DNA of 64,000 nt from Bacillales bacterium UBA1188 (GCA_002310135.1 DBYK01000001.1:367949-431948); one strand, 5' to 3'. Counted from the stretch's first letter, positions 2,489-25,323 are shown. Notes: a model not told the origin generated them from the sequence alone. Program-made: numbers and translations.

Positions 2489-2650
2489 AATACTAACCCT
2501 TGTACTTCTTATAATAACATTATAACACATCATTCTTTTAAAAAATGGCCCTCTATAGCTCAAGTATTTGACTTAATACTTTAAATAATCTATTTTTTGA
2601 ATTATAATATTTTTAGAATTACATATAAAATTAAATATTTGGAGGAAAAA

Positions 2651-3496
2651 ATGATTTACGTATTATTCAATTCTAAATCTAACAATTCTCATGGCGAAGA
2701 GGATGCTAGAAAATGGGCAGAAAGGCTAACTCAAGATGTCGAATTTGTGGAGCTTGTTGGGCTTGACTACAAAAAATTCTTTGATGGTCTAACTGAAGAT
2801 GATGAAGCAATTCTATGTGGTGGAGATGGAACTGTAAATTATTTCGCTAATGAAATGTATGGATATGATTTCAAATGCAAATTATCTTATGTGAAATGTG
2901 GTTCAGGAAACGACTTCTATAGAGATGTAGAAGAATATGAAAAAGATGGAAAAATTGATTTTAAACCATTCCTTAAAAACTTACCACTAATTAAAGTAAA
3001 TGGAATTGAAAGAAGATTCTTAAATGGTATTGGTTATGGTCTTGATGGTGAAACTTGTCTTGTTGGAGATCAAATTAGAGAAAAAGATCCAGGAGCTAAA
3101 ATCAATTATACTAATATCGCAATAAAACTACTTCTTGGAGGATATACAGTTAGAAAGGCTACTGTTACTGTTGATGGAGTAACTAATGAATATGAAAATG
3201 TATGGCTTTCAAGTACTATGTTTGGTAAATATTATGGTGGCGGAATTATGGCTGCACCTAAACAAAATAGACTAAATGAAGAACACACTTGTACAGTAAC
3301 AACTCTATCAAGTACTGGAAGACTTAGGACTTTCTTAAGATTCCCTACTTTCTCAGGTGGAAAACACGATGGAAAGAAATGGATTAATCATACTGTAGGA
3401 CATAGTTTCAAAGTTTCCTTCGATATTCCATGTGCACTTCAAATAGATGGTGATGTAGTACCTGAAGTTAAGGAATACGAAGTTGTGATTGATTAG
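2651..3496 (+). CDS. diacylglycerol-kinase catalytic-domain lipid kinase (YegS/BmrU family)
   Basis: Trimmed to ATG 2651 behind GGAGG. DAGK_cat motifs CGGDGTVN and GSGNDF, plus C-terminal IDGD. Confidence 0.75.
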   Translation: MIYVLFNSKSNNSHGEEDARKWAERLTQDVEFVELVGLDYKKFFDGLTEDDEAILCGGDGTVNYFANEMYGYDFKCKLSYVKCGSGNDFYRDVEEYEKDGKIDFKPFLKNLPLIKVNGIERRFLNGIGYGLDGETCLVGDQIREKDPGAKINYTNIAIKLLLGGYTVRKATVTVDGVTNEYENVWLSSTMFGKYYGGGIMAAPKQNRLNEEHTCTVTTLSSTGRLRTFLRFPTFSGGKHDGKKWINHTVGHSFKVSFDIPCALQIDGDVVPEVKEYEVVID

Positions 3497-3498
3497 TT

Positions 3499-5031
3499 AT
3501 GAAAAAATATGATTGTGTAGTAATAGGTGCAGGAAATGGTGGTCTGAGTGCTGCAGTCAAAATTCTTATGGGTAAAAAAAGCTGCCTCGTATGTGAAAAG
3601 CACAATATACCTGGAGGTTTTGCGACATCTTTTGTAAGAGGTAGATTTGAATTTGAAGCTTCTCTTCATGAATTCAATGGAATAGGAAATGAGGAGATGT
3701 GTGGCAGCACAAAAAGAATGTTCGATGAACTTGAAGTAAGCGATTTAATAGAATGGATTCAAGTTAAAAATGCATATAGATTGATATCTAAAGAAGAAGG
3801 GATAGATTTCGTTCTTCCTTTTGGTATTGATAATATCATTAAAGCTTGTGATACATTATGTGAAAATGGCGGAATTGAGGCAAAAAAGATAATTGATTTA
3901 TCTAAAACAATTTATGAAGCTGTAGGATATTTAAGTGATTCAAAAGGTAACCCAGACCCTGAGGTTATGAAGACAAAATATTATGATTATCTTGCGACTT
4001 CTTCTTATTCTGTCAATGAAGTATTTGAATCCCTTAAAACTCCAAAAATCATTAAAAATGTTTTAAGCGCATATTGGAGTTATTTAGGAGTTGACTTCGA
4101 TAATATGAGTTTTGTGCATTATGCGAATATGACTTATTCATATTACAGTATGGGGGCTACTGTCCCTAAATATAGAAGTCATGAATTATCATTAGCGTTT
4201 GAGAAGAGAATTCATGATTTAGGAGGAGATATCTTCTATAACACTGAAGTTAAAAAGATTTTAACTGATGAAGTTGGTCATGTATCAGGTGTAGAACTTT
4301 CAAATGGTGAGGTAATTGAGACAAGACATGTTATTGCGAACTGTTCGCCACACGTTGTATATTCAAATATGTTAGACCCTAAAGTTGTCCCTGAAAGAGC
4401 TCTTAAATTATGCAATTTTAGGAAATTTGCGGGAAGAGGAATAACTATTTTCTTAGGACTTGATTCTTCTCCTGAAGAACTTGGAATAACTGAACATTCA
4501 TATTTCATTTATAATTCAAGTGATTCAGTAAAAATGTATAATGAGATGAAAGATCTTCATCATCATGTTGGCCAAGCAACTTGTTGTCTTAATAATGTTA
4601 ATCCTGATTGTTCTGAAAAAGGAACTACTATTCTTTATATGACATCTCTCTATTTTGATGATGCTTGGAAAGATGTTGAAGAAAAAGATTATTATAAATT
4701 CAAAAATGAAGTTGCGGAGAAATTTATTGAAGATTTTGAAGTTGCGACTGGCGCAAAAATAAAAGGTCATATAGAAGAAATAGCTATCGCAACGCCTCAA
4801 ACATACGCAAGATACACTGGACATCCTCAAGGAGTAATCTATGGGTATGAAGGTAAATATGATGACGGACTAATGGCGAGAATTATGATGGTTAATGAAG
4901 ATGCGTTTATTAAAGGTCTTAGATTTGGAGGAGCCTATGGTGAAAGAGAAATAGGTTATCCATCTTCATATAAGAGTGGTTATAATGAAGCTAAAAGAAC
5001 CCTAAAAGATATGGAAAAGGAGGGCTCATAA
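3499..5031 (+). CDS. FAD/NAD(P)-dependent oxidoreductase, phytoene-desaturase (CrtI/COG1233)-like
   Basis: 510 aa with N-terminal dinucleotide-binding VVIGAGNGGLSAA...E. Length and layout resemble CrtI-family amine-oxidase-fold enzymes. Start is 2 nt after the upstream stop. Confidence 0.7.
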   Translation: MKKYDCVVIGAGNGGLSAAVKILMGKKSCLVCEKHNIPGGFATSFVRGRFEFEASLHEFNGIGNEEMCGSTKRMFDELEVSDLIEWIQVKNAYRLISKEEGIDFVLPFGIDNIIKACDTLCENGGIEAKKIIDLSKTIYEAVGYLSDSKGNPDPEVMKTKYYDYLATSSYSVNEVFESLKTPKIIKNVLSAYWSYLGVDFDNMSFVHYANMTYSYYSMGATVPKYRSHELSLAFEKRIHDLGGDIFYNTEVKKILTDEVGHVSGVELSNGEVIETRHVIANCSPHVVYSNMLDPKVVPERALKLCNFRKFAGRGITIFLGLDSSPEELGITEHSYFIYNSSDSVKMYNEMKDLHHHVGQATCCLNNVNPDCSEKGTTILYMTSLYFDDAWKDVEEKDYYKFKNEVAEKFIEDFEVATGAKIKGHIEEIAIATPQTYARYTGHPQGVIYGYEGKYDDGLMARIMMVNEDAFIKGLRFGGAYGEREIGYPSSYKSGYNEAKRTLKDMEKEGS

Positions 5032-6198
5032 ATGTTTAAAAGAAATGAAAATCCAATGGTAGATGTCCAAAAAGGATTAAACATTGTTAATAAGAGAAGA
5101 GAAGCTATTGATAATTCTCCTTCTACTCCTCTTCCAAAATCATATAAAGTTAATGAACTCTCAAAATCTTTACATCCAGGAATGATTAAAGCGGAATTAA
5201 TTGATATTAAAGATTCAATATCTGATTATAAAATTTTAACTTTTAAATCATTATCTAAGAATAAAAGATTTCCATATTTTAAGGCAGGACAATTTATTAC
5301 AATTTCAGCTAGAGTTAAGGGTTCTATAGTTACAAGACCTTATTCAATTTATTCATCACCTAAAGATGCCTTAAATGGAATAATAGAAATAGGTGTAAAA
5401 AGAAGCGGATTCTTCTCTAATTTTTTAGTTGATGTAATAAAGATAGGAACAAAAGTTATGATTGGAGAGCCATCTGGAGATTTCTATTATGATAACTTAA
5501 GAGATAAAAAGAATATAGTTGGGATTGCGGGTGGATCAGGTGTTACTCCATTTGTATCTATGATTAAATCTTTAATTGAGGGCACAGATGACTTCAATCT
5601 AACATTATTTTATGGCGTTAGAAAAAGAGAATTTATGATGTATGATTTTAGTTCAATTAATGACCCAAGAATAAAGATTATAATTATATTATCTGAAGAA
5701 AAAGTTGATGGTTATGAATATGGCTTCATCACAAAAGATATTTTAAATAAATACCTTAAAGGTGATTATTCAGTCTTTATGTGCGGACCAGATCCTATGT
5801 ATGAGTTTGTTTCAAAAGAATTCGCTAAACTTGGGGTTGATTATCATAAAATAAGATTTGAACATAACACTATAGGAGATGATCCAACTCTTAAGCACAT
5901 TGAACATAAACTTACAGTACACTTAAGAGATGAGGTACACGTTATACCTTCTTATGAAAACGAAACCATACTTACAGCCATGGAAAAAGGAGGGTTATAT
6001 ACTCCATCTAGATGTAGAAGTGGATTCTGTGGGTTCTGTCACTCAAGATTAATAAGTGGAGATTATTATACTCCTTCTAAATATGATCATAGAAGAGGGG
6101 CAGATAAAAAATTTGGATATATTCATCCTTGTGCAACATATCCAAAAAGTGATATGGAAATAGATGTTCCACCACTAGATGAACTAAAGGAGTTATGA
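5032..6198 (+). CDS. ferredoxin-NAD(P) reductase-like flavoprotein with C-terminal 2Fe-2S ferredoxin domain
   Basis: Motifs RPYSIYS (FAD), GIAGGSGVTPF (NAD(P)H) and plant-type cluster CRSGFCGFCHS...HPC. The ATG abuts the upstream stop. Confidence 0.75.
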   Translation: MFKRNENPMVDVQKGLNIVNKRREAIDNSPSTPLPKSYKVNELSKSLHPGMIKAELIDIKDSISDYKILTFKSLSKNKRFPYFKAGQFITISARVKGSIVTRPYSIYSSPKDALNGIIEIGVKRSGFFSNFLVDVIKIGTKVMIGEPSGDFYYDNLRDKKNIVGIAGGSGVTPFVSMIKSLIEGTDDFNLTLFYGVRKREFMMYDFSSINDPRIKIIIILSEEKVDGYEYGFITKDILNKYLKGDYSVFMCGPDPMYEFVSKEFAKLGVDYHKIRFEHNTIGDDPTLKHIEHKLTVHLRDEVHVIPSYENETILTAMEKGGLYTPSRCRSGFCGFCHSRLISGDYYTPSKYDHRRGADKKFGYIHPCATYPKSDMEIDVPPLDELKEL

Positions 6199-6199
6199 T

Positions 6200-6871
6200 A
6201 TGACAACACCAGTAATTATATTCACAGTTGTATATTCGTTAGTGCTTGTTGCGTATTTCTTTACTGAAACAAGCGGAAAGATGTATTTAAGAGCCCCAAA
6301 TAAGGTTCTTCTTGCGCTTATGTTTTTCGTCTTTGCGTGTATAGTCTTTTCAATAGATGATAAATATTCTCTTCTTTCATATCATGGTTTATTTATGGCG
6401 GGATTATTTCTTGCGATGCTTGGGGATATATTTCTTCTATTTGATTTAAATAGAGGAGGAGATTTCTTCTTAGCAGGAAATGTGTGTTTCATCATCTATG
6501 AACTCTCAGTGCTTAGTCAACATTCAATTAAATTTAGTGAATATTGGTGGGTGATATTAGTATCTTTAATCTTACTTCTCACATATTATTTCCTTTTCAC
6601 TAAATTTGATAAGTTCTTTAAAATGGGGAAGATGAAATATCCAATGTTGTTTTATTTATCATCAATTACACTCCATGGAGTTATGGGGATTGCGGTGATG
6701 ATATATGTTCCATCTCTTCTTCTTTTAGGACTTGGTTCACTTCTATTCTTTATATCTGATTTGATACTTACAGTAGATAGATTCGCACTTAAAAACAATT
6801 GGAGCTTAAGAGCTAACAGCGCATTCTATTTTACTGGATTATTATTGATGGTTTTAAGTATGGTAGTTTAA
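6200..6871 (+). CDS. YhhN-family membrane protein (lysoplasmalogenase/TMEM86-like)
   Basis: 223 aa, polytopic. MLGDIFLL, LLFFISDLILTVDRF and YFTGLLLM align with E. coli YhhN motifs as I recall them. Start is 1 nt after the upstream stop. Confidence 0.65.
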   Translation: MTTPVIIFTVVYSLVLVAYFFTETSGKMYLRAPNKVLLALMFFVFACIVFSIDDKYSLLSYHGLFMAGLFLAMLGDIFLLFDLNRGGDFFLAGNVCFIIYELSVLSQHSIKFSEYWWVILVSLILLLTYYFLFTKFDKFFKMGKMKYPMLFYLSSITLHGVMGIAVMIYVPSLLLLGLGSLLFFISDLILTVDRFALKNNWSLRANSAFYFTGLLLMVLSMVV

Positions 6872-6876: not shown

Positions 6877-6904
6877 AAAAAAGACCTTACATAAGGTCTT
6901 TTAT
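6877..6904. terminator. bidirectional rho-independent terminator between two convergent operons
   Basis: aaaa-AAGACCTT-acat-AAGGTCTT-ttatt: perfect 8-bp stem flanked by an A-run and a T-run. Confidence 0.7.
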
Positions 6905-6907
6905 TAT

Positions 6908-8089
6908 TTAAAAATCTAATGAATCAATATTTGAAAGTAAATCATGAGCTTTTTTCTTAAATGTCTCAAGTTCAGCTTCAAATGTTGGTTCATTTTTTCT
7001 ATGTTTAGAAATATATTTAATCATATGAAGAGAATTAAGACATTTAATTTTATCATTCACTTCTTTTATCTTGCCTTCATCAGTAGTATTTAGATATAAC
7101 CTGATGAACTTAGGCCAAATCTGTGAATATAATTCTTCTTTCATTCCTAAGAAGTTTTCAATTAACTTAGGATTGATTTCACCAATACCAACATAAGCGA
7201 AATAGGTATTCGCAAGATCAAATATTCTATTTCCATAAGACAAAGTATCCATATCTATTATTAATGCTTCCCCATTTTGAAGCATAATGTTGTTTGTGTG
7301 AAAATCTCCATGAAGCATTTTAAGAGGTGCTTTTAAAGCTTTGATTAAGGCTTCTGCCTTATCGCTATCTTCTTTACTCAAAAAAATCTTAGATGCTTCA
7401 ATCCATTCACCACCAATTTCAGTATTCGCATTAGGCATATCAGTCGATTTAACTTCAGTTCCATGAATGATTTTTACAAGATCAACCATCTGTTCAACAT
7501 ATTTATCTAAATCATCTGGATTATTTTTGATTGCATCTGAAAGTGATAATGCATCTAGTAATTCAAATACTGAACCATATTTATCACCAACAACTACAAC
7601 ATCAAAAGGAATTACTGTAGGTACGCCTAAGATAAATGCTTTTCTTGCGAGGTCTCTTTCTCTATTTATTTCTGGTAGACTATCGCTATTTTTATATACT
7701 TTGATGATTGTATCATCATCATATTTATAAATAATGCCTTTAGCTCCTTTTCCAATCACTTTACAACCATCCACTGACATCTTTCTATAAGCTTTTTCGA
7801 TTGGAATCATTTCAGAGAAACCAGTCATCTCAAAGATTTCATATGCTTCAACAGAAACATTTATTATCTTTAAAGATTTTTCTTTTTTCTTTAGTCTTAA
7901 AACAACACGAAGACCGGCACTTGAAATATAATTCAGGTTTCTTGCGTCTATTATCACATCCCCTTCTTTATTTATAGATCTAATATCATTAATCTCAGTT
8001 TCTGTGGCTTCGGCGTTTGCTGAGTCTAATCTTTCATTTAGTTTTAAATATAAAGTATTGTCTTTAAACTCGTATGATATATAGTTCAT
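6908..8089 (-). CDS. STAS domain fused to an aminoglycoside/choline-kinase-like (protein-kinase-like fold) domain
   Basis: aa 1-100 form a STAS domain (NLNYISSAGLRVVL, MTGF). The remainder has Gly-loop GKGAKGIIY, IIKVYK, catalytic HGDFHTNNIM and IIDMDT. RBS AGAGGAG lies upstream. Confidence 0.7.
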   Translation of the reverse strand: MNYISYEFKDNTLYLKLNERLDSANAEATETEINDIRSINKEGDVIIDARNLNYISSAGLRVVLRLKKKEKSLKIINVSVEAYEIFEMTGFSEMIPIEKAYRKMSVDGCKVIGKGAKGIIYKYDDDTIIKVYKNSDSLPEINRERDLARKAFILGVPTVIPFDVVVVGDKYGSVFELLDALSLSDAIKNNPDDLDKYVEQMVDLVKIIHGTEVKSTDMPNANTEIGGEWIEASKIFLSKEDSDKAEALIKALKAPLKMLHGDFHTNNIMLQNGEALIIDMDTLSYGNRIFDLANTYFAYVGIGEINPKLIENFLGMKEELYSQIWPKFIRLYLNTTDEGKIKEVNDKIKCLNSLHMIKYISKHRKNEPTFEAELETFKKKAHDLLSNIDSLDF

Positions 8090-8100
8090 TTTGCTCCTCT

Positions 8101-10965
8101 TTATTTAATTCTCTTTTTAATTGTGAAAATATTTTTATCGTTTGTGAATTCATAGTGGACGCTATCCATTGACTTTTTAACCATATAAATACCTAAACCA
8201 CCAATAGATCTTTCTTCAGAAGATAATGTAATATCTGGATTATCTTTGGATAGAGGATTGAATGGAATGCCTGAATCAATGAATCTGATTGTGGCAATAT
8301 CATCTTTAATTAATATTCCGATAGTGGCATTCCCGGTTGAATCTATATAAGCATAATGAGCAATATTTATGAATATCTCTTCAATCGCTATAGATATTTG
8401 ATTAATAGCTTTCATAGATGCTTCTTTCTTTTCAAGTTCACCTATAATGAAGTTTGTGACATTTGCTAGTTCAGAATCTTGAGCTTTAAATGTTCTTTCA
8501 ATCATTGGATTTGAATCTCCATAATAACTTATCATTAACATTGTAATATCATCGAATTGTTCAGCTTCACCTTTGAATTTGTCGATATCAACTTTGATTC
8601 CTTTTAAGACTTCTTCCATTGATTCTTCTTTATGTTCATTTAAATAATTTATTAATCGAGGTTCTCCATATAATTCTTTATCTATATTGTTTGCTTCAGT
8701 AACGCCATCAGTATAAAGATAAATCTTATCGCCTGGATTTAAATCTAATTCTTGTGGTTTATAAATGAAACCATCTATACCACCTAATACTAAACCAGAT
8801 TTAGATTTGATATATTCAAAACCTTTATCTTTTCTATAGATGAGTGGTGGGTTATGGCCTGCATTCGCAAATGTGACATGTCCATTTGTGTAATCTAATA
8901 TACCCATCCAACATGTGACAAACATACCTGCATCATTATTACTGCACAGTTTGTTGTTCGCATCACTTAAAACTACATCTACTGGCTTTCCAGATTCAGC
9001 CATATTCTTAAGTAATGTTTTAGCTGTCATCATGAAGAGGGCTGCGGGTATACCTTTACCTGAAACATCCGCAACTAGGAATGCGACTTCGTGATCACTT
9101 ACCATATAGAAATCGTAGAAATCACCTCCAACTTCTTTTGCGGTATCCATAGTTGCATAAATATCAAAATATTTTAAAGCAGGGAATGGCGGGAATACTG
9201 ATGGTAAAGATGAGTGCTGGATGTTTTTCGCAAACGCTAATTCGTTGTCTATTCTTTGCGATTCTAGTTCTATATAATGTTTTAGAGTTGAAACTGTAGA
9301 GTTAATGTCATCTGATAGAGATGAAAATTCATCACTAGTATAAACATTCACTCTAGTATCTAAATTACCGCCTATAATTTTAGATAAACTATCATTAACT
9401 TCTCTTATGTTGTTCACTACATATTTTTTAATTAGGAAGTAGATGTGGAAGAAGAATATCGCAAACACTATTACTTCCATGAAAGAATTAACATATAATT
9501 GAGCATCTCTAGTCGAATAAGCTTCTTCTTCAGATAAAACACCAATAACTAAAAAATCAGTGAGTTTTTTATACATTACGAATACTTTTTCTTTATCTAT
9601 CGTCTTTCTTACTACTGACATTTCATCATTTTGATTTATTAATGATTCAACTGTTTCAGCTAAAGCGCTATCACTAGAAATGGGTTTATCGTTATTTTGA
9701 ATATCTTGGTTGTGCTTGTTTAAAATGATGTAGTAACCAGTACTTCCAATACGTCTTGATTCAGTATATTTAATTACTGTTTCTTCTATACTTTCTTCAT
9801 ATTTATCTTTATCATAACCAACTTGAATAAATTCAGTGTCGTTTAATTTAACAGCTGCATATTTCCTATATGTAGTTGAATCATATCCAATAGGCCCAAA
9901 TTCTTGAACCATTTCAAGCGTGTTTTGAGTATCTATTAAAACCATGAATGCATTAGACTGTTCAGAGCTACGCATATTAAAGCCTATATCAACATATTCT
10001 TGGTTAGTGCTCTTAATTATTAATCCAGTGCTATCCACAACATTTATTTCACTGATTTCAAACTCATTCATTAATGAAACTAAATCTATATCATTGTTGA
10101 ATCTGTATCTATTGACTATTTCATGGCTTTTCATAAGAAGAGATTCATTTAATAAATCTTCATCAGAATTCTTAATGATCTCAAAAGATACATCGTTGAT
10201 GTTTTGTTCTAAAAGATTGTTTGCTTGACTTAAAGCGGTCGATGTTTGAAGTTGATATACAAATAAAGTGGTTGCAAGATATGTTAGAACAATTGAAACT
10301 AATAACCAGTTTTGAACCTGTTGTGATATCTTTCTGTTTCTTGGCTCTCCGTTTCTTATCTTAAATGATACGAAAGAAACAAGAATAACAGATAACATTA
10401 CAGATATAGAATTAACTAACACCATTGGTATAGTACATATCTCAACTATTCTTATGGCTTCCAAAGGTTCATTTAAATGAGTGATGAAAATTAGTGTCAT
10501 ATGGACAGTCTCCATTACAACACCAGTCACAAGAGCTAAAGCCCATGTTGGACGTTTGTTATCAAACATAAATTTTCTTAAGAATGCAGCATAAAGACCT
10601 GCAAGAATAGTCGATATCGAGCATGCTACTTGAGAATACGCAAGTCCAGGTTTCCAGATGACCGCAAGAAATCTTTCAATTCCACCAATTAAACCTGAAA
10701 CAATTCCAGCATATGGGCCGAATATTAGGCCTGCGCAAAGTGGTGCTGCATCTCTTGCATTAGCGGTTGCCCCACCAATTTCTACACCAAATTCAGTGCC
10801 TACTATAGCAGCAAGTCCAAATACCACACCTATTATTATTTCTTGTCTTATTCTTGGTATATCATTGAAACTAGTTCTTTTCTTTAATATATGAAAAACT
10901 CCCGATAAAGTTATCGGAATTAAAGCACAAAGTGATAATTTTAAAATGATGTCGAAATCAAACAT
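8101..10965 (-). CDS. membrane sensor with PP2C/SpoIIE phosphatase and RsbW/SpoIIAB-type serine-kinase (HATPase) domains in one polypeptide
   Basis: Start moved to ATG 10965, because the track's TTG start lies inside the GGAGG RBS. Domain order:
- N-terminal multi-TM 5TMR-LYT-like region (ARDAAPLCAGLIFGPYAGIVSGLIGG)
- TM, ~250-aa extracytoplasmic region, TM
- HAMP-like segment
- PP2C motifs GGDFYDF, DVSGKG, TDGVTEA, DDITML
- C-terminal GGLGIYMVKKSMD ATP-lid. Confidence 0.8.
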   Translation of the reverse strand: MFDFDIILKLSLCALIPITLSGVFHILKKRTSFNDIPRIRQEIIIGVVFGLAAIVGTEFGVEIGGATANARDAAPLCAGLIFGPYAGIVSGLIGGIERFLAVIWKPGLAYSQVACSISTILAGLYAAFLRKFMFDNKRPTWALALVTGVVMETVHMTLIFITHLNEPLEAIRIVEICTIPMVLVNSISVMLSVILVSFVSFKIRNGEPRNRKISQQVQNWLLVSIVLTYLATTLFVYQLQTSTALSQANNLLEQNINDVSFEIIKNSDEDLLNESLLMKSHEIVNRYRFNNDIDLVSLMNEFEISEINVVDSTGLIIKSTNQEYVDIGFNMRSSEQSNAFMVLIDTQNTLEMVQEFGPIGYDSTTYRKYAAVKLNDTEFIQVGYDKDKYEESIEETVIKYTESRRIGSTGYYIILNKHNQDIQNNDKPISSDSALAETVESLINQNDEMSVVRKTIDKEKVFVMYKKLTDFLVIGVLSEEEAYSTRDAQLYVNSFMEVIVFAIFFFHIYFLIKKYVVNNIREVNDSLSKIIGGNLDTRVNVYTSDEFSSLSDDINSTVSTLKHYIELESQRIDNELAFAKNIQHSSLPSVFPPFPALKYFDIYATMDTAKEVGGDFYDFYMVSDHEVAFLVADVSGKGIPAALFMMTAKTLLKNMAESGKPVDVVLSDANNKLCSNNDAGMFVTCWMGILDYTNGHVTFANAGHNPPLIYRKDKGFEYIKSKSGLVLGGIDGFIYKPQELDLNPGDKIYLYTDGVTEANNIDKELYGEPRLINYLNEHKEESMEEVLKGIKVDIDKFKGEAEQFDDITMLMISYYGDSNPMIERTFKAQDSELANVTNFIIGELEKKEASMKAINQISIAIEEIFINIAHYAYIDSTGNATIGILIKDDIATIRFIDSGIPFNPLSKDNPDITLSSEERSIGGLGIYMVKKSMDSVHYEFTNDKNIFTIKKRIK

Positions 10966-10994
10966 TATAGTAGCCTCCAATTAGCAAGAATAGT

Positions 10995-11291
10995 TTATTC
11001 AATATCTATAATGTCTGAAAAACCAGTCATTTCAAATATATCTTTTATATCATCACATGCATTTATTATTTTCATGTGTCCAATTTTATTCATCTTTTTT
11101 TGAGATAGAAGCATTACACGTAATCCTGCTGAAGAGATGTATTCAAGATTCGAAAAATCAAAAACTAAATCAATAATTGAATCACCAAATTCATTCAATT
11201 TTTCTTCTAATTCTGGAGCCGTAACGGTATCTAATCTTCCCTCTAAAGCAACTACTGCTTTTCCTTCTTCTGTCAAAATGTTAATAGTCAT
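10995..11291 (-). CDS. STAS-domain anti-sigma-factor-antagonist-like protein (RsbV/SpoIIAA family)
   Basis: 98 aa. NLEYISSAGLRVML phospho-Ser motif and MTGF motif. First gene of the operon. Confidence 0.85.
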   Translation of the reverse strand: MTINILTEEGKAVVALEGRLDTVTAPELEEKLNEFGDSIIDLVFDFSNLEYISSAGLRVMLLSQKKMNKIGHMKIINACDDIKDIFEMTGFSDIIDIE

Positions 11292-11768: not shown

Positions 11769-12623
11769 TTATTCAACTCCCAAATATTCAAGCGAGCTAA
11801 TAAACATTTCTTTATTTATATTATCAATATTGTAATCGGTATTAACGAAAGGAATTATATCTGACTTTAAAGAATTAAAATCTGTTTGTTCAAACCTTTC
11901 TTTTAATAGCTCTTTAATATCATCAATAGTATAATCTGATGTATCTTTATTTAAAGAATACTTTAATTTGTTTTTTAAATAATCCAAATTAATTTTTATA
12001 TTGTGAGAGACATAAAACATATAGTCATAATAATCTCTTCCTTTAGTTCTTTCTCTCCAGTTTCTTGTTATTAATGCATTTAATTTGCTTGCAAATAATG
12101 ATTCATAATTAAAACAATATATATTAGAAAACATTGGGGAATTAAGTAATTTCATTTCATATTTAGCTCCAGGTATAAATACAGTACTAACTTCAATTTT
12201 GATTGAAAGTAGTTTTTCTTTGTTCATATTAATTTTGCCAAAAAATTCACTAGCAATATCATAATGAGATATTTTTATATATCTTCTTCTAACTTCACCA
12301 CTATCATAATCTGATTTTGAATATACTATAGATTTTAAACCATATGATTCAAGTACAGTTATACATTTAGACATGTATTGATCAAAATCTAATTTATAGT
12401 CTTCACTTATTACTTGAAAATCTAAATCTTCACTAAATCTATCTAATCCATGAAAAATTCTTAAGCATGTGCCACCATAAAAGGCGACATTTTTAAAAAA
12501 TGATGTTTGAGCTAATGCATACAATATTATTTTTTGGGATATTTCTCTAAATGCATTTTCAAATTCATATATATTTTTAGGATTACTTAATTTTAAAGAT
12601 TCTAAAATATAATTATTAAACAT
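11769..12623 (-). CDS. abiEii: AbiEii/AbiGii-family nucleotidyltransferase toxin (type IV TA, DUF1814)
   Basis: 284 aa with GGTCLRIFHGLDRFSEDLDF, the family motif. Overlaps the upstream antitoxin gene by 8 nt. Confidence 0.8.
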   Translation of the reverse strand: MFNNYILESLKLSNPKNIYEFENAFREISQKIILYALAQTSFFKNVAFYGGTCLRIFHGLDRFSEDLDFQVISEDYKLDFDQYMSKCITVLESYGLKSIVYSKSDYDSGEVRRRYIKISHYDIASEFFGKINMNKEKLLSIKIEVSTVFIPGAKYEMKLLNSPMFSNIYCFNYESLFASKLNALITRNWRERTKGRDYYDYMFYVSHNIKINLDYLKNKLKYSLNKDTSDYTIDDIKELLKERFEQTDFNSLKSDIIPFVNTDYNIDNINKEMFISSLEYLGVE

Positions 12624-13203
12624 GCTTTGCCTCCAAATATTTTTTTAAAATTTTTAATGTCTTTGATGAATATAACTCACACAATTTAATAATTTTATCC
12701 TTATCTAGTTCATCAAATAATACCTCATCAATTCTTAAATCATCAAACAACAAATCCGTTAATTCTTTCTTATTGTTCCTTGGTGATATTACTGACAATA
12801 AATCAAGCAATGCTTTTTCCTTAGATGCCATCATAACCTTAACACCATCAATTTCAATTTGATTAATATCATATGGATAAGCATTTAAATTAACATCCTG
12901 ATATAAGAATAATCCGAAATTATTTTTATATTCCTTCTTCTTATTTTTTTTAAATGTAGCAGATTTTATAGCATATACTCTTTCAGGTATCATTCCATAA
13001 TAGGCTAAGGCTGTTTCAAAGGAAATATATGATGGTGATAATAAAACATTAGCAATTGTTAAAGGATCTGCATTCTTATTTGTTTCATATAATCCTCTTT
13101 TTAGTTTAATAAGATTATTATTTTTTTCCTCATATGCAATTTTGTTATAAATATTTGAATAATTTCTATATTCATATATTAACATGTCAATAGTCTTAAT
13201 CAT
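12616..13203 (-). CDS. abiEi: AbiEi-family antitoxin / transcriptional regulator
   Basis: Trimmed to ATG 13203 behind AGGAGG. LIKLKRGLYETN-type N-terminal wHTH pattern. Paired with AbiEii. Confidence 0.75.
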   Translation of the reverse strand: MIKTIDMLIYEYRNYSNIYNKIAYEEKNNNLIKLKRGLYETNKNADPLTIANVLLSPSYISFETALAYYGMIPERVYAIKSATFKKNKKKEYKNNFGLFLYQDVNLNAYPYDINQIEIDGVKVMMASKEKALLDLLSVISPRNNKKELTDLLFDDLRIDEVLFDELDKDKIIKLCELYSSKTLKILKKYLEAKHV

Positions 13204-13225
13204 ATTATTTCCTCCTGTTACTACT

Positions 13226-13254
13226 ATTATACAGTAGTTATTGGTGGAAATCAA
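13226..13254 (-). promoter_or_regulatory. abiE promoter (TTGATT-17-TATAAT) with inverted repeat ACTACT-N7-AGTAGT across the -10
   Basis: Minus strand reads TTGATTtccaccaataactactgTATAATagtagtaacAGGAGGaaataatATG. Confidence 0.6.
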
Positions 13255-13262
13255 GCATATTG

Positions 13263-13299
13263 TTAAAAAATAAAAAACTGACACTTTATTGTATCAGTT
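13263..13299 (-). terminator. strong rho-independent terminator insulating the abiE module
   Basis: Minus strand reads AACTGATAC-aataaa-GTGTCAGTT then TTTTTTATTTTTT. A homologous copy lies at 32545-32582. Confidence 0.7.
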
Positions 13300-13490
13300 T
13301 TATTGTTTAAATATGTCTTTATGCAACTCGTTATAATTGCTAAAAAGTGGAAATGATACTCGTTATACTTACATTTTCCTGCTAAAAAGTGGAAACTAGA
13401 GGAAAATTCGTAATCAAGATTTTTTTCGAGAAAAAATAATTATTTAAAGTAATAAGTGTTAAATAATAATTTGATGTAAAATGATATATT

Positions 13491-13531
13491 TTTAGCAAAA
13501 GAAAACACCTTTGATGTAATCGCGGGTGTTT
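13491..13531 (-). terminator. terminator of the MTase/nuclease operon
   Basis: AAACACC-N15-GGTGTTT hairpin 20 nt after the stop, followed on the minus strand by TTTTCTTTTG. Confidence 0.6.
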
Positions 13532-13550
13532 TAAATTCGTAAAGATTTTA

Positions 13551-15119
13551 CTAATTTTTAATAAGAACTCTTCCCAATGGTAACGTTGATTGAATCAAAC
13601 GAGCTATATCAGCCTTTCTAGCATTAATATAAGTTTCTTGTTCATTTTCAAATCTGTTAAAATCAACTGTGTTCATTGATGTTTGAAGTAAAATATCTCT
13701 TGAGATAATCGCATTATATTTTGCAACTTTATGAGTAATATATTGATTTTGAATACTCTTGTTAACTTGTTCACACAACAATATATAATTTCCTATATTA
13801 TCAATTAATTCTTTTTGCAATTCACGATGAGACGGCCATCCATTCCCAGCCCATTCAGAATCTGGATTCTGTGGATAAATATGTTCCAGATTAATAGTAT
13901 TAACATTAACAGTACCTGAAATATTTCGACAGATTACATCTATTATTAGCAATGCTTTTTTTAACCCTCTTGGAGTTGTAATCGCACCCAATTTATCAGT
14001 AAAATCATTTATATTAATTTGCCAAGTAACAACATCAGAATTTATTTTATTAATTAATGAGGAATTAATATCGTCTGGAGTTTTTCCTGTTTTAACAGCA
14101 TCTACAACATCATTTAATAAATATCTAAATGTTGTAGGGCTTCCGCCATTTAGAGTTAATACAATACTCATCATACATAATGGAACCATGACTTTAAGCA
14201 TATAGTCATGATTTGTATTTATATCAATATGCTTCATCGCTAATATATTTAACACATCTAAAAGAGTATTTCTATTAATATAGTTCACAACATATTTTAT
14301 TGGACTATTACCTATAGTATTTAACAGTGCAATTGTATCAACAAAATCTTGATATGTATTTCTGTCTTTTGTTACATTTTCTCTTAAGAATGTAATAATT
14401 TCCATGTTATCGAAATTCTTATCAAAATTGCTTGATTTTAATTTGTAATAACTAATAATAGATTGTCTAACTTCTTTCATTTTAGATGTATCAAATCTTA
14501 TTCCATATGCCAATGAATATTGATCTAATGCAGTTTTTATAACTTCATCTTTTGATAGTGGTTTACCCCCAGTATTGATTTGTTGAAATATATTAAATGC
14601 ATCATCAGCATTACTACATTTTTTCATATAAACATAAATATTATTTTTAATAATTTTTATAAAGTCATTAATTCTATCTATGTTATCACGAATAAAACTA
14701 TAAAAATCTAAATATACCTTTTTAAAAGGTGCTGTTGCATAGTTCGTGAAATGAGTTTCATACTTTTGTTGATTAGCAAAAACATCATATTTTATATCAA
14801 ATAAATCTATGTCGTCAATCACTAATCCATCTTCTGATGCAATAGTCTTAATAACTTTTATCAAATTATTCAAAGTTACTAATCTTTGCTGACCATCTGC
14901 AAACTTAATTCTTCCATCTTCTTCATAATAAATAAAATCTAAAAAATACAATTGTGATTGTTGATTATCTATTACCTTCAATAAATCTTCTTTTAATTGA
15001 ACTATTTCTTTTTCCTTCCAATCATAAAATCTTTGAAAAATAGGTATACCAATTTTTTTATTTTGCCAATCATATAATTTAATGTACTCAGAAGTAATAT
15101 CATTACTATTTATTAACAT
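13551..15119 (-). CDS. DUF262 + DUF1524 protein (GmrSD/SspE/BrxU-type nuclease architecture)
   Basis: N-terminal IPIFQRFYDW, ADGQQRLVTL and FQQINTGGKPLS. C-terminal His-Me finger LEHIYPQ ... NIGNYILLCEQVNKSIQN. Confidence 0.85.
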   Translation of the reverse strand: MLINSNDITSEYIKLYDWQNKKIGIPIFQRFYDWKEKEIVQLKEDLLKVIDNQQSQLYFLDFIYYEEDGRIKFADGQQRLVTLNNLIKVIKTIASEDGLVIDDIDLFDIKYDVFANQQKYETHFTNYATAPFKKVYLDFYSFIRDNIDRINDFIKIIKNNIYVYMKKCSNADDAFNIFQQINTGGKPLSKDEVIKTALDQYSLAYGIRFDTSKMKEVRQSIISYYKLKSSNFDKNFDNMEIITFLRENVTKDRNTYQDFVDTIALLNTIGNSPIKYVVNYINRNTLLDVLNILAMKHIDINTNHDYMLKVMVPLCMMSIVLTLNGGSPTTFRYLLNDVVDAVKTGKTPDDINSSLINKINSDVVTWQININDFTDKLGAITTPRGLKKALLIIDVICRNISGTVNVNTINLEHIYPQNPDSEWAGNGWPSHRELQKELIDNIGNYILLCEQVNKSIQNQYITHKVAKYNAIISRDILLQTSMNTVDFNRFENEQETYINARKADIARLIQSTLPLGRVLIKN

Positions 15120-15133
15120 ATTTTTTCACCCCA

Positions 15134-15511
15134 CTATGCCTTTTGGTAGACGATTCTTTCGCCTTTCTTTAATTCATTAATTTCTTTATATGCATAAATT
15201 CCATCTTGATTAGCTAGACCATCTGGATGAAATGCATTACTACTAAACAAATTACGAATTATAACTCTAAATCGTTCTTGGTTATTTGATGGTAATATTT
15301 CTTGAAAATAAAGTGGAATATTATCTAAATTATCACAAACAATATCATAATAAAGAGGTATAATTGTATCACTATCTATTGGACCATTATATTCAACAAT
15401 TTCTTGTACAGCAATTTCTCTTAAAATAACCCAAAAAGCATCGTGACCAACCTTTTTTGTTGATGCATATTTAAGTCTATGTATTTCTCTTTTTAATACG
15501 TCACCTAACAT
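15134..15511 (-). CDS. hypothetical 125-aa protein, translationally coupled between MTase and nuclease
   Basis: The ATG is 1 nt after the MTase stop, with RBS AGAGGTGA inside the MTase 3' end. I recognise no motif. Confidence 0.6.
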   Translation of the reverse strand: MLGDVLKREIHRLKYASTKKVGHDAFWVILREIAVQEIVEYNGPIDSDTIIPLYYDIVCDNLDNIPLYFQEILPSNNQERFRVIIRNLFSSNAFHPDGLANQDGIYAYKEINELKKGERIVYQKA

Positions 15512-15512
15512 T

Positions 15513-16622
15513 TCAGTTCACCTCTTTCTTTAACAAGAATAAATATTCTTTTACATGTATATCTCTATCTCTTAAGTTTCGACATCCTCTAAATACATTG
15601 TATTTTTTATCAAAAGCTCTTACTTCACCTAGTTGTTCCAACATTTCAACCATTTCTTCATATGATATAAAGCCTTCAGAATTATATGAAATCAAAATAT
15701 ATGTTGCATTTATATCATTGCAAAGCTGTCTCATTGATTCTAACGCCTCGTTTTTTTTGTTATATGTTGATTTATTCCAACCAACTGGAATACCAGAAAC
15801 GGAAGATACATTGTCAGGCTCTTTATAGTTATTTATTAAGTTCAACATAAAGTAATTTGATCCATAAGGGTGTTGGTTATATGGTGGGTCTAAATATGCT
15901 AAATCGACATGTGGCAACTGTTTACATATAACGTTTGAATCGCCTTGAAAAACATGAACATTACAATTGTTTTGACTTAGTATTGGCATTTTCAGTTCTA
16001 TATTTGCAAGAATTCTTTGCAAAGCATTTTTTCCATCGCCACCAAATTGTCCTATATGTGTTTTGGAATTTTTATAGAAGCCTTTAAATACTCCTGAGGT
16101 GTTGTTTTTGGTTGAAGCTTCATATAAAAGAGGACCTAAGAGTAAAGTCTTATAAGGTTCAGGAACTTCTTCAATATATTTTCGAGCAGTATCTAGATAA
16201 TTTGCATTTCTTGTTGTATAAAACACTCTTTCTCCAGGTTGTATATTTTTATCATCCTTTGGTGCATACAATCTAGAAATGAATCCATTTGTTTCTAAAG
16301 GATTATTTTTTAACTTATCAGTTATATCATCAAACCACTTTTTTAACTCGTTTAAATTAATATCACTTTCATTTGCTAAATAGCACCTATTTATCGTATT
16401 ACAATAATCCTCTAAGTCATTAGTATATAAGTTCTTTGAATACTGCTTTAAAAATCTAGAAACAATCCCTGATCCTGCAAAAACATCAAAAGTATCTATT
16501 TTGTCTACATTTAATTCATCGATGACAAGTTTAATTGCACTATCAATAAAATCTAAAAGAGATCTTTTATTTCCTAAATATGTAATTATTTGTTCTGTCA
16601 AATATACATTTCTTTCGGTCAT
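15513..16622 (-). CDS. N6-adenine DNA methyltransferase, D12 (Dam/M.FokI-like) class
   Basis: YLGNKRSLL, DVFAGSG (motif I), YLDPPYN (motif IV) and ILISYNSEG. These are collinear with M.FokI domain motifs as I recall them. Confidence 0.85.
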   Translation of the reverse strand: MTERNVYLTEQIITYLGNKRSLLDFIDSAIKLVIDELNVDKIDTFDVFAGSGIVSRFLKQYSKNLYTNDLEDYCNTINRCYLANESDINLNELKKWFDDITDKLKNNPLETNGFISRLYAPKDDKNIQPGERVFYTTRNANYLDTARKYIEEVPEPYKTLLLGPLLYEASTKNNTSGVFKGFYKNSKTHIGQFGGDGKNALQRILANIELKMPILSQNNCNVHVFQGDSNVICKQLPHVDLAYLDPPYNQHPYGSNYFMLNLINNYKEPDNVSSVSGIPVGWNKSTYNKKNEALESMRQLCNDINATYILISYNSEGFISYEEMVEMLEQLGEVRAFDKKYNVFRGCRNLRDRDIHVKEYLFLLKKEVN

Positions 16623-16796
16623 AATATTCCACGTCTTTCATAAAAAGTTATGAAGGCTTTGAAGTATCAAATTGTATGAATTATTAGAACGAAACGTTTA
16701 TTGATAAAATGTAGGAAAAATGTGGCAAATATCGTGCTTTATATAGAAATTTTGAGAAAAATATAGAATACTATATGAGATTTATTGAAGAATTTT

Positions 16797-16843
16797 AGAG
16801 GTATCAAAACGTATACATTTTTATATTGTTTGTTGATACCTCT
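16797..16843. repeat. inverted repeat AGAGGTATCAA-N25-TTGATACCTCT upstream of the recombinase gene
   Basis: Perfect 11-bp arms read directly from the sequence, 70 nt upstream of the recombinase start. Candidate res/crossover or operator site. Confidence 0.5.
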
Positions 16844-16913
16844 TTTAATTTGCTTTCAAACTTGATAAATCCTCCTTTTTATGGCTTTATATGTAGAAAT
16901 GGAGGTGAGTAAA

Positions 16914-17513
16914 TTGATTTATGCGTATATACGTGTTTCAACTAAACAACAGAAAATCGATAGACAATATGAAGAAATAAAAGCTCTTGATATTGATGAC
17001 AAGCATATCTATATTGATAAAGAATCAGGAAAAGACTTTGATAGAACCAATTATCAAAAATTAATTAAGAAAATAAAAAAAGACGACCTACTAATTGTTA
17101 AATCAATAGATCGTCTAGGTAGAAATTATAAAATGATATTAGATGAATGGGCTTATATAACTAAAACTAAAGAAGCTGATATTAAGGTACTTGATATGCC
17201 ACTTCTAGATACTAGAATTGAAGGAAAAAATCTAGTTGGCAAATTTATAAGTGATATAGTACTTCAAGTATTATCTTTTGTCGCTGAGAATGAAAGAAAT
17301 AATATTAAAGAGCGTCAAGCTGAAGGTATTCGAATTGCAAAAGAAAAAGGTGTTAAGTTTGGTAGGCCAAAAGTATCTACCCCACCTAACACCAATGAAA
17401 TATTAGATAAATATATAAATCATGAAATAACTAATACTGAAGCTGCAGAATTAATTGATGTATCAAGAGGAACATTCTTTAGATTAGTTAAAGAAAGAAA
17501 ACGTATAATATAG
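16914..17513 (+). CDS. small serine recombinase (resolvase/invertase family)
   Basis: IYAYIRVSTKQQKIDRQ catalytic-Ser motif and C-terminal HTH (TNTEAAELIDVSRGTFFRLV). Probable TTG start at 16914 behind GGAGGTG; the track ORF begins at 16881. Confidence 0.85.
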   Translation: MIYAYIRVSTKQQKIDRQYEEIKALDIDDKHIYIDKESGKDFDRTNYQKLIKKIKKDDLLIVKSIDRLGRNYKMILDEWAYITKTKEADIKVLDMPLLDTRIEGKNLVGKFISDIVLQVLSFVAENERNNIKERQAEGIRIAKEKGVKFGRPKVSTPPNTNEILDKYINHEITNTEAAELIDVSRGTFFRLVKERKRII

Positions 17514-22526: not shown

Positions 22527-22916
22527 ATCTATTAGAGAACTCGTATAACCATATTTAGTTAAATATTCATTTAATATAGCTAAATCATATATTTCATTTT
22601 CTATACAATACCTAATTATTAAAGAATATTTGGATGAAGATGCGAGAGTGTATCCCGCTTTTTTAAGCAAATATTTACATTCATGATTGTTTAGTTTTAA
22701 AGTGAATATTATCTTTAGGCATGTGCTAAGTGATGGATTGCATTTCTTTGAAATAATTGCGGACCAAGATTGTTTAGATATATTAGCTTTAGTATATAGG
22801 TCACTAGATTTAGAAAAACCATATTTATCCATAAGAAAATATAAATAGTCTACAAAATCATCTATCTTTTCTTTAGTTCTTGATTGTTTATATTTGATAT
22901 ATTCTTCAAGTGTCAT
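22524..22916 (-). CDS. hypothetical HTH-domain protein
   Basis: 130 aa. ANISKQSWSAIISKKCNPSLSTCLKIIFTL resembles an XRE-type HTH. Confidence 0.55.
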   Translation of the reverse strand: MTLEEYIKYKQSRTKEKIDDFVDYLYFLMDKYGFSKSSDLYTKANISKQSWSAIISKKCNPSLSTCLKIIFTLKLNNHECKYLLKKAGYTLASSSKYSLIIRYCIENEIYDLAILNEYLTKYGYTSSLID

Positions 22917-23022
22917 AAAAAACCATCCTTTCTTTTATTTTAACACAAAAGTAAAAACTCATTTTACCACTTTGTCAATAACAAGTGATATAATTCTTTT
23001 GTATTTAGGAGGAGTAAATAAA

Positions 23023-23676
23023 ATGTCAAGATTAAAAGATATTCATGATTACTTAATCTCAGTTGGAAAAAAGGAAGAGGAATTATTGAAATGTGATAAT
23101 TATTCTGTTTTTTTGTCTATGGAGATTTGTGAATATGCACATCGTAATCAAAAAAGAGAAAATGGAGAAGATTATGCTAATCATCCATTTAGATGCTTAG
23201 GAATGTATAGAGAATTCGTTGGAATAATTGAAAATGATCCTTTCTGTATTGATAAGGATATAATGCTTAAACACGGAATACCATTTGATGGTGTTCAAGA
23301 ATTATGCTTACTTCATGATGTAATTGAAGATACAGATTTTACAGTTAAAGATTTAGAAGAGATATTTGATGAATGTGGTTTAAAAACATATTTTTCTCTA
23401 TATATTGAAACACCATTAAAACTTATAACTCACAAAAAAAGCGATGATTATGATGAGTATATATCTCAAGTATTAAAACATCCGACTTCTTCTCTTGTGA
23501 AAATGCTTGATTTATATGATAATTTAAATCCTACTTCTTTAAATCAACTAAATGAAAAAGAAGAAAAAAGAATGATAGATTATTTATCTTATGTCATTGT
23601 GATAAATAGGGCATATGATTTTGTGAATAATATGAATAAATATAAGAAGGAATTTGAAAATGATAAAAATAATTAA
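23023..23676 (+). CDS. HD-domain hydrolase, (p)ppGpp-hydrolase (RelA/SpoT HD, SAH)-like
   Basis: Trimmed to ATG 23023 behind GGAGG. HRNQKRENGEDYANHP and LLHDVIEDT motifs. Confidence 0.7.
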   Translation: MSRLKDIHDYLISVGKKEEELLKCDNYSVFLSMEICEYAHRNQKRENGEDYANHPFRCLGMYREFVGIIENDPFCIDKDIMLKHGIPFDGVQELCLLHDVIEDTDFTVKDLEEIFDECGLKTYFSLYIETPLKLITHKKSDDYDEYISQVLKHPTSSLVKMLDLYDNLNPTSLNQLNEKEEKRMIDYLSYVIVINRAYDFVNNMNKYKKEFENDKNN

Positions 23677-23833
23677 AGAAGAAATTGAGGAAAGCATCAA
23701 GCTTAAAACAGACAAACTAGCTTGTATATTGTTTATGAATTTTATTATGGATGGAGATATTAATCATTTTCGAATTTTAGATAATATTGGTAAAAAAGAA
23801 AAAAGATTTGAAGAATATAAAAGAGAGAATTAA
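23660..23833 (+). CDS. candidate 57-aa ORF overlapping the HD gene's 3' end
   Basis: MIKIIKEEIEESIKLKTDKLACILFMNF... The ATG is 14 nt before the upstream stop. Below the track's size cut-off; no homology recognised. Confidence 0.3.
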   Translation: MIKIIKEEIEESIKLKTDKLACILFMNFIMDGDINHFRILDNIGKKEKRFEEYKREN

Positions 23834-23840
23834 TTCTCTC

Positions 23841-25322: not shown

Positions 25323-25323
25323 A

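Follow-up and report, generated by a model that had tools for sequence, protein, structure and literature searches.

What could be the common purpose of four tightly packed genes that encode a putative lipid kinase, a flavoenzyme, an iron-sulfur reductase and a homologue of a membrane-embedded ether-lipid hydrolase? This question is raised by positions 2651-6871 of a 64,000-nucleotide stretch of DNA from Bacillales bacterium UBA1188 (GCA_002310135.1 DBYK01000001.1:367949-431948), the whole of which is referred to here as the window. The operon probably encodes an undescribed oxygen-free route for unsaturated or ether lipids. Its conserved core is the pair formed by the flavoenzyme, a member of the CrtI/CRTISO superfamily, and the FNR-type NAD(P)H oxidoreductase, the latter being a dedicated partner of the former. 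The best explanation found for the complete set is that this two-component core, together with the kinase and the YhhN protein, processes non-ordinary glycerolipids in strict anaerobes, a reading that is proposed tentatively, its probability being judged somewhat short of an even chance.

The initial annotation had described four co-directional genes with a common terminator and had taken them for a single functional unit; the gene boundaries, the gaps and the hairpin were all confirmed. The four genes form one operon, since they are separated by stop-to-start gaps of 2, 0 and 1 nucleotides, carry internal ribosome-binding sites and end at a single terminator. The Shine-Dalgarno sequence of the reductase gene (AAGGAGGG, 5018-5025) lies within the flavoenzyme gene and that of the YhhN gene (AAGGAG, 6187-6192) within the reductase gene, which is the usual mark of translational coupling. 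Regarding the terminator, its hairpin folds with -11.5 kcal/mol (z = -4.7), a value reached by none of 200 shuffles, and it is common to the operon and to the convergent gene at 6908-8089.

The unity of the operon is also supported by its recurrence in other genomes. For the synteny comparison, 80 loci were obtained from an alignment-query scan of metagenome contigs and more from protein look-ups, the loci being divided into two clades by tblastn with the four window proteins; a scan of the genome collection with the single flavoenzyme sequence gave two close relatives only. Clade A comprises 31 loci, mostly from rumen, digester and biogas metagenomes, with flavoenzymes 62-84% identical to that of the window. 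The order kinase-flavoenzyme-reductase-YhhN is preserved, between differing flanks, in all 25 loci long enough to contain it, the remaining six ending at a contig edge, and the same cluster was recovered again when the YhhN protein or the kinase served as the query. This recurrence is far beyond chance. The metagenome-assembled genomes (MAGs) that carry it are labelled as Bacilli, Oscillospiraceae, Mogibacterium, Erysipelotrichaceae, Eggerthellaceae and Cloacimonetes, some of which may be binning errors. Clade B, with 57 loci from the human gut, has flavoenzymes 49-53% identical to that of the window, and the flavoenzyme and reductase genes are adjacent in 55 of the 55 loci that extend far enough. 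The initial annotation would have been contradicted by a failure of its family assignments or by a lack of co-conservation; the neighbourhood comparison found the four genes co-conserved, all four assignments were supported by Pfam profile search, and the motifs it had quoted (GGDGT, GSGNDF, RPYS, GGxGxxP and the 2Fe-2S cysteines) are present and conserved in the homologues.

A TetR-family regulator lies upstream of the pair in more than 40 loci, a few of them from clade A, with a weak best family match (FabR, E 8e-4); regulators of this type are typical of genes that answer hydrophobic ligands. Besides TetR, no recurrent neighbour emerged from all-against-all clustering of the flanking open reading frames (ORFs) and targeted tblastn. 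The neighbours confined to single lineages are a methyltransferase of the cyclopropane/mycolic-acid synthase (CMAS) type, a 211-amino-acid protein, a DJ-1/PfpI protein, HAD phosphatases and metallophosphoesterases. The CMAS-type methyltransferase, which is S-adenosylmethionine-dependent, stands directly 3' of YhhN on the same strand in three loci of one lineage (L093, 7877-8638; L036, 11590-12348; L094, 3603-4364).

The partnership at the core of the operon is the most constant feature of the family. The reductase gene lies directly behind the flavoenzyme gene in all of the roughly 80 loci extending far enough, and in nine of the 150 best family representatives both are joined in a single chain of 851-918 amino acids. 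Seven of these nine fusions were scanned with Pfam (P0624 and P0625 were left out of the scan), the order being FNR-Fer2-CrtI-like in P0490 and CrtI-like-FNR-Fer2 in P0574, P0587, P0611, P0618, P0623 and P0633. Independent fusions in either order point to a physical and functional partnership, and the dedicated electron-transfer partner proposed by the initial annotation is thus upheld by adjacency as well as by nature's own fusions.

The closest NCBIfam models to the reductase are the Hcr-type NADH oxidoreductase, PaaE and BenC (E 1e-36 to 1e-37), with MmoC also near, all of which hand the electrons of NAD(P)H singly to a terminal enzyme. The protein stays below the equivalog cut-offs, with 127 bits against 383 for the Hcr type and 126 against 421 for PaaE. 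It shares with these reductases, and with phthalate dioxygenase reductase, the FAD_binding_6, NAD_binding_1 and Fer2 domains, the last at the C-terminus as in Hcr and PaaE; however, the terminal enzyme here would be a CrtI-superfamily flavoprotein instead of an oxygenase or a hybrid-cluster protein. Along the order flavin adenine dinucleotide (FAD) - NAD - Fer2, the cofactor motifs (RxYS, GGxGxxP and Cx4Cx2C...C) are kept in 60-70 of 70 homologues, the R-x-Y of RPYS being present in all 70, and the cysteines of the C-terminal plant-type [2Fe-2S] domain (C328, C333, C336 and C367) in 69-70. In addition, an N-terminal extension of about 47 residues (residues 1-50, window 5032-5180), absent from Hcr and the PaaE-type relatives, ends in H-P-G in 68-70 of the 70 homologues and might serve to dock the flavoenzyme.

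A distant version of the pair occurs on a plasmid of the cultured lactobacillus Ligilactobacillus acidipiscis ESL0726 (NZ_CP113927.1, record 22708-25733), where a 511-amino-acid flavoenzyme with 27% identity is followed after 2 nucleotides by a 276-amino-acid FNR-like protein that lacks Fer2 and also carries H-P-G, with a divergent TetR gene upstream. Its neighbours are a lactate oxidase-like gene, pyruvate oxidase, FAD synthetase and riboflavin genes. This pair indicates that the flavoenzyme-reductase theme reaches deep into the family, and its cultured host could offer a way into experiments; the plasmid search gave no relative above 27% identity.

Features of the operon and its signals in the window (positions counted from the first nucleotide of the stretch)
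Feature	Position	Strand	Product or description	Domains or basis
Kinase gene	2651..3496	+	281 aa, DgkB/YegS/BmrU-type, predicted soluble	DAGK_cat + YegS_C
Flavoenzyme gene	3499..5031	+	510 aa, CrtI/CRTISO-superfamily FAD enzyme	Amino_oxidase / NAD_binding_8
Reductase gene	5032..6198	+	388 aa, FNR-type NAD(P)H oxidoreductase	FAD_binding_6 + NAD_binding_1 + Fer2
YhhN gene	6200..6871	+	223 aa, integral membrane protein, YhhN family	PF07947
Promoter-like site (candidate)	2580..2608	+	TTTAAA + 17-nt spacer + TATAAT	Consensus scan, 10/12 matches
Shine-Dalgarno sequence	2641..2645	+	GGAGG, 5 nt 5' of the kinase ATG at 2651	Read from sequence
Intrinsic terminator hairpin, bidirectional	6879..6902	both	10 bp + T-run	Terminator scan

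The reading frame of the kinase is open from 2597, the ATG given in the table being the best start in view of the Shine-Dalgarno sequence before it. The promoter-like site is a candidate only, because such sites are no commoner in this region than expected from shuffles. The GC skew (the strand imbalance of G and C) changes sign near 2560, at the divergent promoter region.

Turning to the flavoenzyme, the initial annotation had called it CrtI-like, which stands for the superfamily and the fold and fails for the named families. Its best NCBIfam match is carot_isom (TIGR02730) with 83.8 bits against a cut-off of 586.9, followed by CrtD (60.9 against 549.7) and crtI_fam (TIGR02734; 60.7 against 238.1), which makes it kin to CrtI at the superfamily level only. 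Its sequence match to solved structures is marginal (PDB, E 1e-5). The AlphaFold 2 (AF2) model (predicted local distance difference test score, pLDDT, 82; predicted template-modelling score, pTM, 0.84) retrieves with Foldseek the gamma-carotenoid desaturase 4rep as best match (E 4e-24, template-modelling scores 0.76/0.79), then 3ka7 and the CrtI structure 4dgk (E 2e-17). The protein is accordingly modelled with a CrtI-type three-domain fold and an N-terminal FAD Rossmann motif, whose GxGxxG (residues 10-15) is invariant among homologues. With CRTISO, CrtI and CrtD (TIGR02730, TIGR02734; 4rep, 4dgk) it shares this fold, the N-terminal dinucleotide-binding motif and the G-x-F-x-F-[DE] region. 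Nevertheless, it differs from them in its scores (61-84 bits against cut-offs of 238-587), in its lack of carotenoid neighbours, in its hosts, which are non-pigmented anaerobes, and in its electron partner, as those enzymes use quinones, O2 or free reduced flavin in place of a dedicated FNR-[2Fe-2S] protein. BfaA, the reductase of 10-methyl fatty-acid synthesis, was considered as a fold relative and dropped, being an FAD-linked oxidoreductase whose proposed reaction is likened to that of MurB (PMC5660069).

The same profiles and folds raise the possibility that the enzyme is a saturase of plant- or host-derived isoprenoids, such as phytol, geranylgeraniol, a retinoid or a carotenoid, with the kinase phosphorylating the isoprenoid alcohol. 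Vertebrate retinol saturase, on which this proposal is modelled, is a CRTISO relative that performs a net reduction. The nearest profiles are indeed those of carotenoid isomerase, CrtD and CrtI, the nearest folds those of carotenoid desaturases, and carotenoids and chlorophyll-derived phytol abound in these habitats. However, the carotenoid-family scores all lie far under the curated cut-offs, neither the window nor any of about 95 related loci has a neighbour of the crtB/crtM/crtY type, and no isoprenoid gene of any kind lies near the cluster in any locus examined. Moreover, this proposal gives YhhN no role, and we know of no DAGK_cat kinase acting on isoprenols, so an isoprenoid saturase is considered quite improbable.

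Among close homologues the most striking motif of the flavoenzyme is R47-G-R-F-E-F-E-A-S-L-H-E58 (window 3637-3672), invariant in 85 of 85, whose His57 is kept by 89 of 118 aligned distant representatives. The motif overlaps the G-F-x-F-D-x-G-P region of CrtI. It also loosely resembles, without matching it, the covalent-flavin histidine motif of limonene dehydrogenase and delta24-SD, for which the consensus near the N-terminus is G-F-[LR]-x-[NS]-[TL]-H-A (PMC11061730). This consensus has no strict match in the window flavoenzyme or in 150 family representatives; the family motif is G-R-F-E-F-E-x-S-L-H, and the looser F-x-x-S-L-H is present.

That resemblance bears on whether the enzyme could be an oxidative allylic dehydrogenase or hydroxylase of the limonene dehydrogenase type, with the substrate reducing the flavoenzyme and the electrons passing by way of [2Fe-2S] and FAD to an acceptor, NAD(P)+ or some other. 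The precedent is CtmAB of Castellaniella defragrans, a COG1233 flavoenzyme that genetically requires the 2Fe-2S ferredoxin CtmE and is clustered with the ferredoxin reductase CtmF (PMC4109377), and a related delta-24 desaturase works at allylic positions (PMC11061730). A hydrophobic unsaturated substrate and a reaction without O2, as predicted for the operon, and the genetic tie of the flavoenzyme to a dedicated 2Fe-2S/flavin reductase chain are the points of likeness (PMC4109377). In contrast, the Ctm enzyme is a heterodimer whose ferredoxin and reductase are separate proteins from another lineage, the loci described here having one flavoenzyme gene each and an FNR-Fer2 fusion; no kinase or YhhN accompanies it, and it is oxidative, its host being a denitrifier (PMC12583861). 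Limonene dehydrogenase needs an acceptor of positive potential and was judged inoperable in highly reduced habitats (PMC12583861), and such an acceptor is unlikely in rumen fermenters. Considering also the missing covalent-flavin consensus and the single subunit, an oxidative role is regarded as highly improbable. Membership in the limonene dehydrogenase clade itself was rejected on the absent motif and the differing subunit composition.

The precedent of CtmAB with CtmEF also weakens the view of the initial annotation that a partnership between such a flavoenzyme and a ferredoxin-reductase chain is unusual (PMC4109377), although the combination of such a pair with a lipid kinase and YhhN is without precedent in the literature found.

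The kinase matches PF00781 (DAGK_cat, E 1.9e-11) and PF19279 (YegS_C, E 9e-7), both above threshold, and its closest PDB sequence matches are 4wrr, 3s40 and 3t5p (E around 6e-6). It shares with DgkB, YegS and BmrU (TIGR00147; PDB 3s40, 3t5p) the two domains and the nucleotide-binding motif GGDGT (residues 57-61), which is kept in 25 of 25 homologues together with GSGNDF (84-89). However, it reaches only 44.1 bits against the NCBIfam model TIGR00147 (YegS/Rv2252/BmrU), under the cut-off of 118.65, and on these scores it appears as a divergent branch of the YegS/Rv2252/BmrU lipid kinases. The subfamily search gave 1428 matches with 57-83% identity, and in every context examined this distinct subfamily occurs within the four-gene operon.

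The YhhN protein matches PF07947 with E 5e-16 and 59.3 bits (gathering score 25.6) over its full length, residues 35-220 covering profile positions 6-181 of 182. Its AF2 model (pLDDT 94, pTM 0.90) predicts eight transmembrane helices, at 3-23, 28-52, 62-80, 86-107, 112-135, 143-169, 171-195 and 200-222; no solved structure of the YhhN family was found for a fold comparison. The active-site residues of TMEM86A/B, proposed and mostly confirmed by mutagenesis, are K43/53, G81/87, D82/88, H104/108, G182/175, S189/182, D190/183 and Y213/206 (PMC11994398). Six of these eight align with G75, D76, G179, S186, D187 and Y210 of the operon protein, all invariant in 21 of 21 sequences; K35, also invariant, lies 3 residues off the aligned lysine and is probably the seventh, and the family histidine is replaced by the invariant Asn94. 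The human TMEM86B sequence used for this comparison was validated solely by its motif spacing, which agrees with the residue numbers of the literature at a uniform offset of 7, E. coli YhhN from an annotated genome being the independent anchor. Thus, the protein resembles the lysoplasmalogenases TMEM86A/B, LpYhhN of Legionella and Rv1401 of M. tuberculosis in its full-length Pfam match (PMC3137066, PMC9052158, PMC11994398) and has kept the G-D, G, S-D and Y positions on which the activity of TMEM86A/B depends, but it forms a separate subfamily with Asn for His and an additional invariant N-R-G-G-D-F-F motif. The search found only 328 relatives, a number that indicates a dedicated subfamily, and the gene was inside the operon in every case examined.

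As described for M. tuberculosis, YhhN removes vinyl-ether chains from lyso forms and protects against toxic lysolipids (PMC9052158). If the operon protein does the same, the operon could be read as an O2-independent pathway for ether-lipid cleavage, an anaerobic counterpart in function to alkylglycerol monooxygenase, which depends on O2 and tetrahydrobiopterin. The kinase would prime an alkyl-, prenyl- or alkenyl-glycerol by phosphorylation. The flavoenzyme, driven or held in the reduced state by its reductase partner, would make or adjust a vinyl ether, whether by desaturating a saturated ether at the alpha,beta position or by moving an allyl-ether double bond with reduced flavin, and YhhN would free an aldehyde and glycerol phosphate. 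The gene order kinase, flavoenzyme, reductase, YhhN is the order of these steps, and the three activities would all be required, which fits the strict co-conservation. Ether lipids are abundant in methanogen-rich habitats, and the four-gene clade is enriched in such habitats, the rumen and digesters. CrtI-family enzymes act beside existing isoprenoid double bonds, and CRTISO isomerises with reduced flavin (PMC3382138). However, by our own estimate the NAD+-linked desaturation of a saturated ether is uphill by some 55-60 kJ/mol (a couple near 0 V against -0.32 V), a thermodynamic difficulty for the pathway that isomerisation of an allyl ether by the flavoenzyme would avoid. The related oxidative enzyme requires a positive-potential acceptor (PMC12583861), and the requirement of known YhhN enzymes for a free sn-2 hydroxyl and a phospho-head group narrows the substrates (PMC9052158). 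In addition, the clade that lacks YhhN and the kinase would need another role. Ether cleavage is therefore held to be decidedly unlikely.

The synthesis of vinyl ethers under anoxia is already known from PlsA/PlsR, a benzoyl-CoA-reductase/dehydratase-type enzyme that converts an ester into a vinyl ether (PMC9702350). It resembles the operon in the lipid class proposed here and in its strictly anaerobic hosts but shows no homology to the operon proteins. No PlsA/PlsR-type domain was detected in these four proteins or in the 27 Pfam-profiled ORFs of the window, a result confined to these 64 kb, and no ORF of the window is longer than 959 amino acids; the distinctness from PlsAR that the initial annotation had claimed is borne out.

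The preferred reading starts from the direction of the electrons. We infer by analogy that they flow into the flavoenzyme, because the kin of the reductase feed terminal enzymes and the hosts are fermenters without obvious high-potential acceptors, and because the oxidative COG1233 relative needs an acceptor of positive potential. According to our own estimate, C=C/C-C couples, including vinyl ether/alkyl ether, lie near 0 V, and their reduction by NAD(P)H would be strongly favourable. The reductive direction is also supported by the best profile match, carotenoid isomerase, an enzyme that needs reduced FAD and isomerises without net redox (PMC3382138).

Thus, the FNR-like reductase would oxidise NAD(P)H, and single electrons would travel over its own FAD and its C-terminal [2Fe-2S] cluster to reach the FAD of its CrtI/CRTISO-like partner, which would then saturate a C=C bond of a lipid hydrocarbon chain or, alternatively, isomerise the double bond with reduced flavin and no net redox, as CRTISO does. 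In the rumen and digester clade, which includes the window, the redox pair would have recruited the soluble DgkB/YegS-type kinase and the homologue of the YhhN vinyl-ether hydrolases. The substrates would be mono- or diradylglycerols and lyso-lipids whose chains are alk-1-enyl, as in plasmalogens, or unsaturated in some other way. The kinase would bring free glycerolipid back into phosphorylated form, YhhN would take vinyl-ether-linked chains off the lyso form, and the reductase pair would remove or shift the chain double bond. We infer this order of steps. For strict anaerobes, the route would be a means to salvage, detoxify or remodel ether or unsaturated lipids, whether exogenous or their own. 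The CrtI-type fold and the TetR regulator, joined in clade A by the lipid kinase and membrane-embedded YhhN, suggest a lipid as the substrate; a plasmalogen or ether lipid is plausible, going by the YhhN family name and the conserved catalytic residues.

Several points weigh against this proposal. In clade B, neither a kinase nor a YhhN gene occurs within 8 kb of the pair, and consequently the core reaction cannot depend on vinyl-ether lipids. The redox-dependent lipid unit of the initial annotation thus survives as one operon, and its redox chemistry is not intrinsically linked to plasmalogens, as the core is the pair alone. A saturase and a vinyl-ether hydrolase represent alternative, not sequential, fates of a vinyl ether, leaving the division of labour loose. 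The direction of electron flow is argued from analogy and our own thermodynamic estimate. To our knowledge, E. coli YhhN has no assigned function, and together with the Asn in place of His, this means that family membership is no proof of lysoplasmalogenase activity. Lastly, no characterised member of the three cluster-specific subfamilies was found, and all named members come from uncultured MAGs, which explains the silence of the literature, where the search found no paper on the cluster or any member.

The occurrence of the pair without YhhN would be accounted for if its function were the biohydrogenation or detoxification of unsaturated fatty acids, the pair being an NAD(P)H saturase or reduced-flavin isomerase for dietary polyunsaturated acids, free or esterified, with the kinase and YhhN as accessories for other products of rumen lipolysis. 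C18 polyunsaturated acids are abundant in the rumen and toxic to Gram-positive bacteria, and the distribution is in agreement, the four-gene clade being concentrated in rumen and digester metagenomes and the pair alone, behind TetR, being widespread in Clostridia-type MAGs of the human gut. The CMAS family modifies double bonds of lipid acyl chains, and a member directly follows YhhN, although in one lineage only. Nevertheless, the strict co-inheritance and translational coupling of the YhhN and kinase subfamilies with the pair would remain unexplained, no link to known biohydrogenating genera was found, and the cluster holds no fatty-acid-binding or activating gene. This possibility is thus deemed unlikely, and the processing of non-ordinary glycerolipids is retained as the preferred reading.

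Judged by profile comparison, every component falls in a known superfamily, three of the four lying under the cut-offs of their nearest named families and YhhN in a subfamily of its own. The gene cluster and its enzyme architecture are new and well supported: a CrtI/CRTISO-superfamily protein, as a single flavoenzyme subunit, is coupled to an NAD(P)H-FAD-[2Fe-2S] reductase in which FNR and Fer2 are fused, full fusions of the two occur, and the hosts are strict anaerobes. Members of the family are frequent in metagenomes from the human gut and the rumen, and an exhaustive search of 1.84 billion representatives gave 305 clusters at 50% identity (E <= 1e-30). Since the electron sources of reductive and isomerising members of the superfamily are poorly known, a dedicated donor is mechanistically informative. 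In addition, the four-gene form gives a pathway context to a bacterial YhhN and a candidate role to a divergent DgkB-like kinase; were ether cleavage true, a bacterial YhhN would for the first time have a partner pathway assigned to it. The findings may bear on rumen lipid biohydrogenation, on anoxic plasmalogen and ether-lipid turnover and on where the saturated alkyl glycerol ethers of anaerobes come from, and the operon, with 4.2 kb, is compact enough for heterologous expression.

Upstream of the operon, two genes run divergently from it on the minus strand, one for a class-2 lipase/DUF676-type alpha/beta hydrolase (1090-1872) and one for a GNAT acetyltransferase (1886-2563). A lipase would suit a lipid operon, yet no other locus examined has either gene beside the cluster. 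The sole other obvious lipid gene of the window is 17 kb away and encodes a PlsC-type acyltransferase of 405 amino acids (23841-25058, minus strand), overlong for its family.

On the other side, the operon is adjoined by a partner-switching-type signalling module on the minus strand (6908-11291), which is not kept beside it in other loci. It consists of an unusual fusion of an N-terminal STAS (anti-sigma antagonist) domain with an APH/choline-kinase-like phosphotransferase (6908-8089), a 959-amino-acid protein combining a 5TM-LYT sensor, a SpoIIE/PP2C phosphatase and a HATPase_c_2 anti-sigma kinase (8101-10980), and a stand-alone STAS protein (10995-11291). Beyond it, a small defence and mobile island (11769-17513), with the GC content falling to 23-25% at 11-12 kb, carries an AbiEii toxin (11769-12623) with an overlapping partner of 222 amino acids (12616-13284), a GmrSD-type restriction enzyme (13551-15119), a Dam-class N6-adenine methyltransferase (15513-16622) and a serine resolvase (16881-17513). 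Finally, two paralogous AAA_14 + DUF4143 ATPases (30859-32154 and 32770-34059) and a REase-ARP restriction endonuclease-like gene (36118-36984) may represent a further defence locus, spanning 30859-36984.

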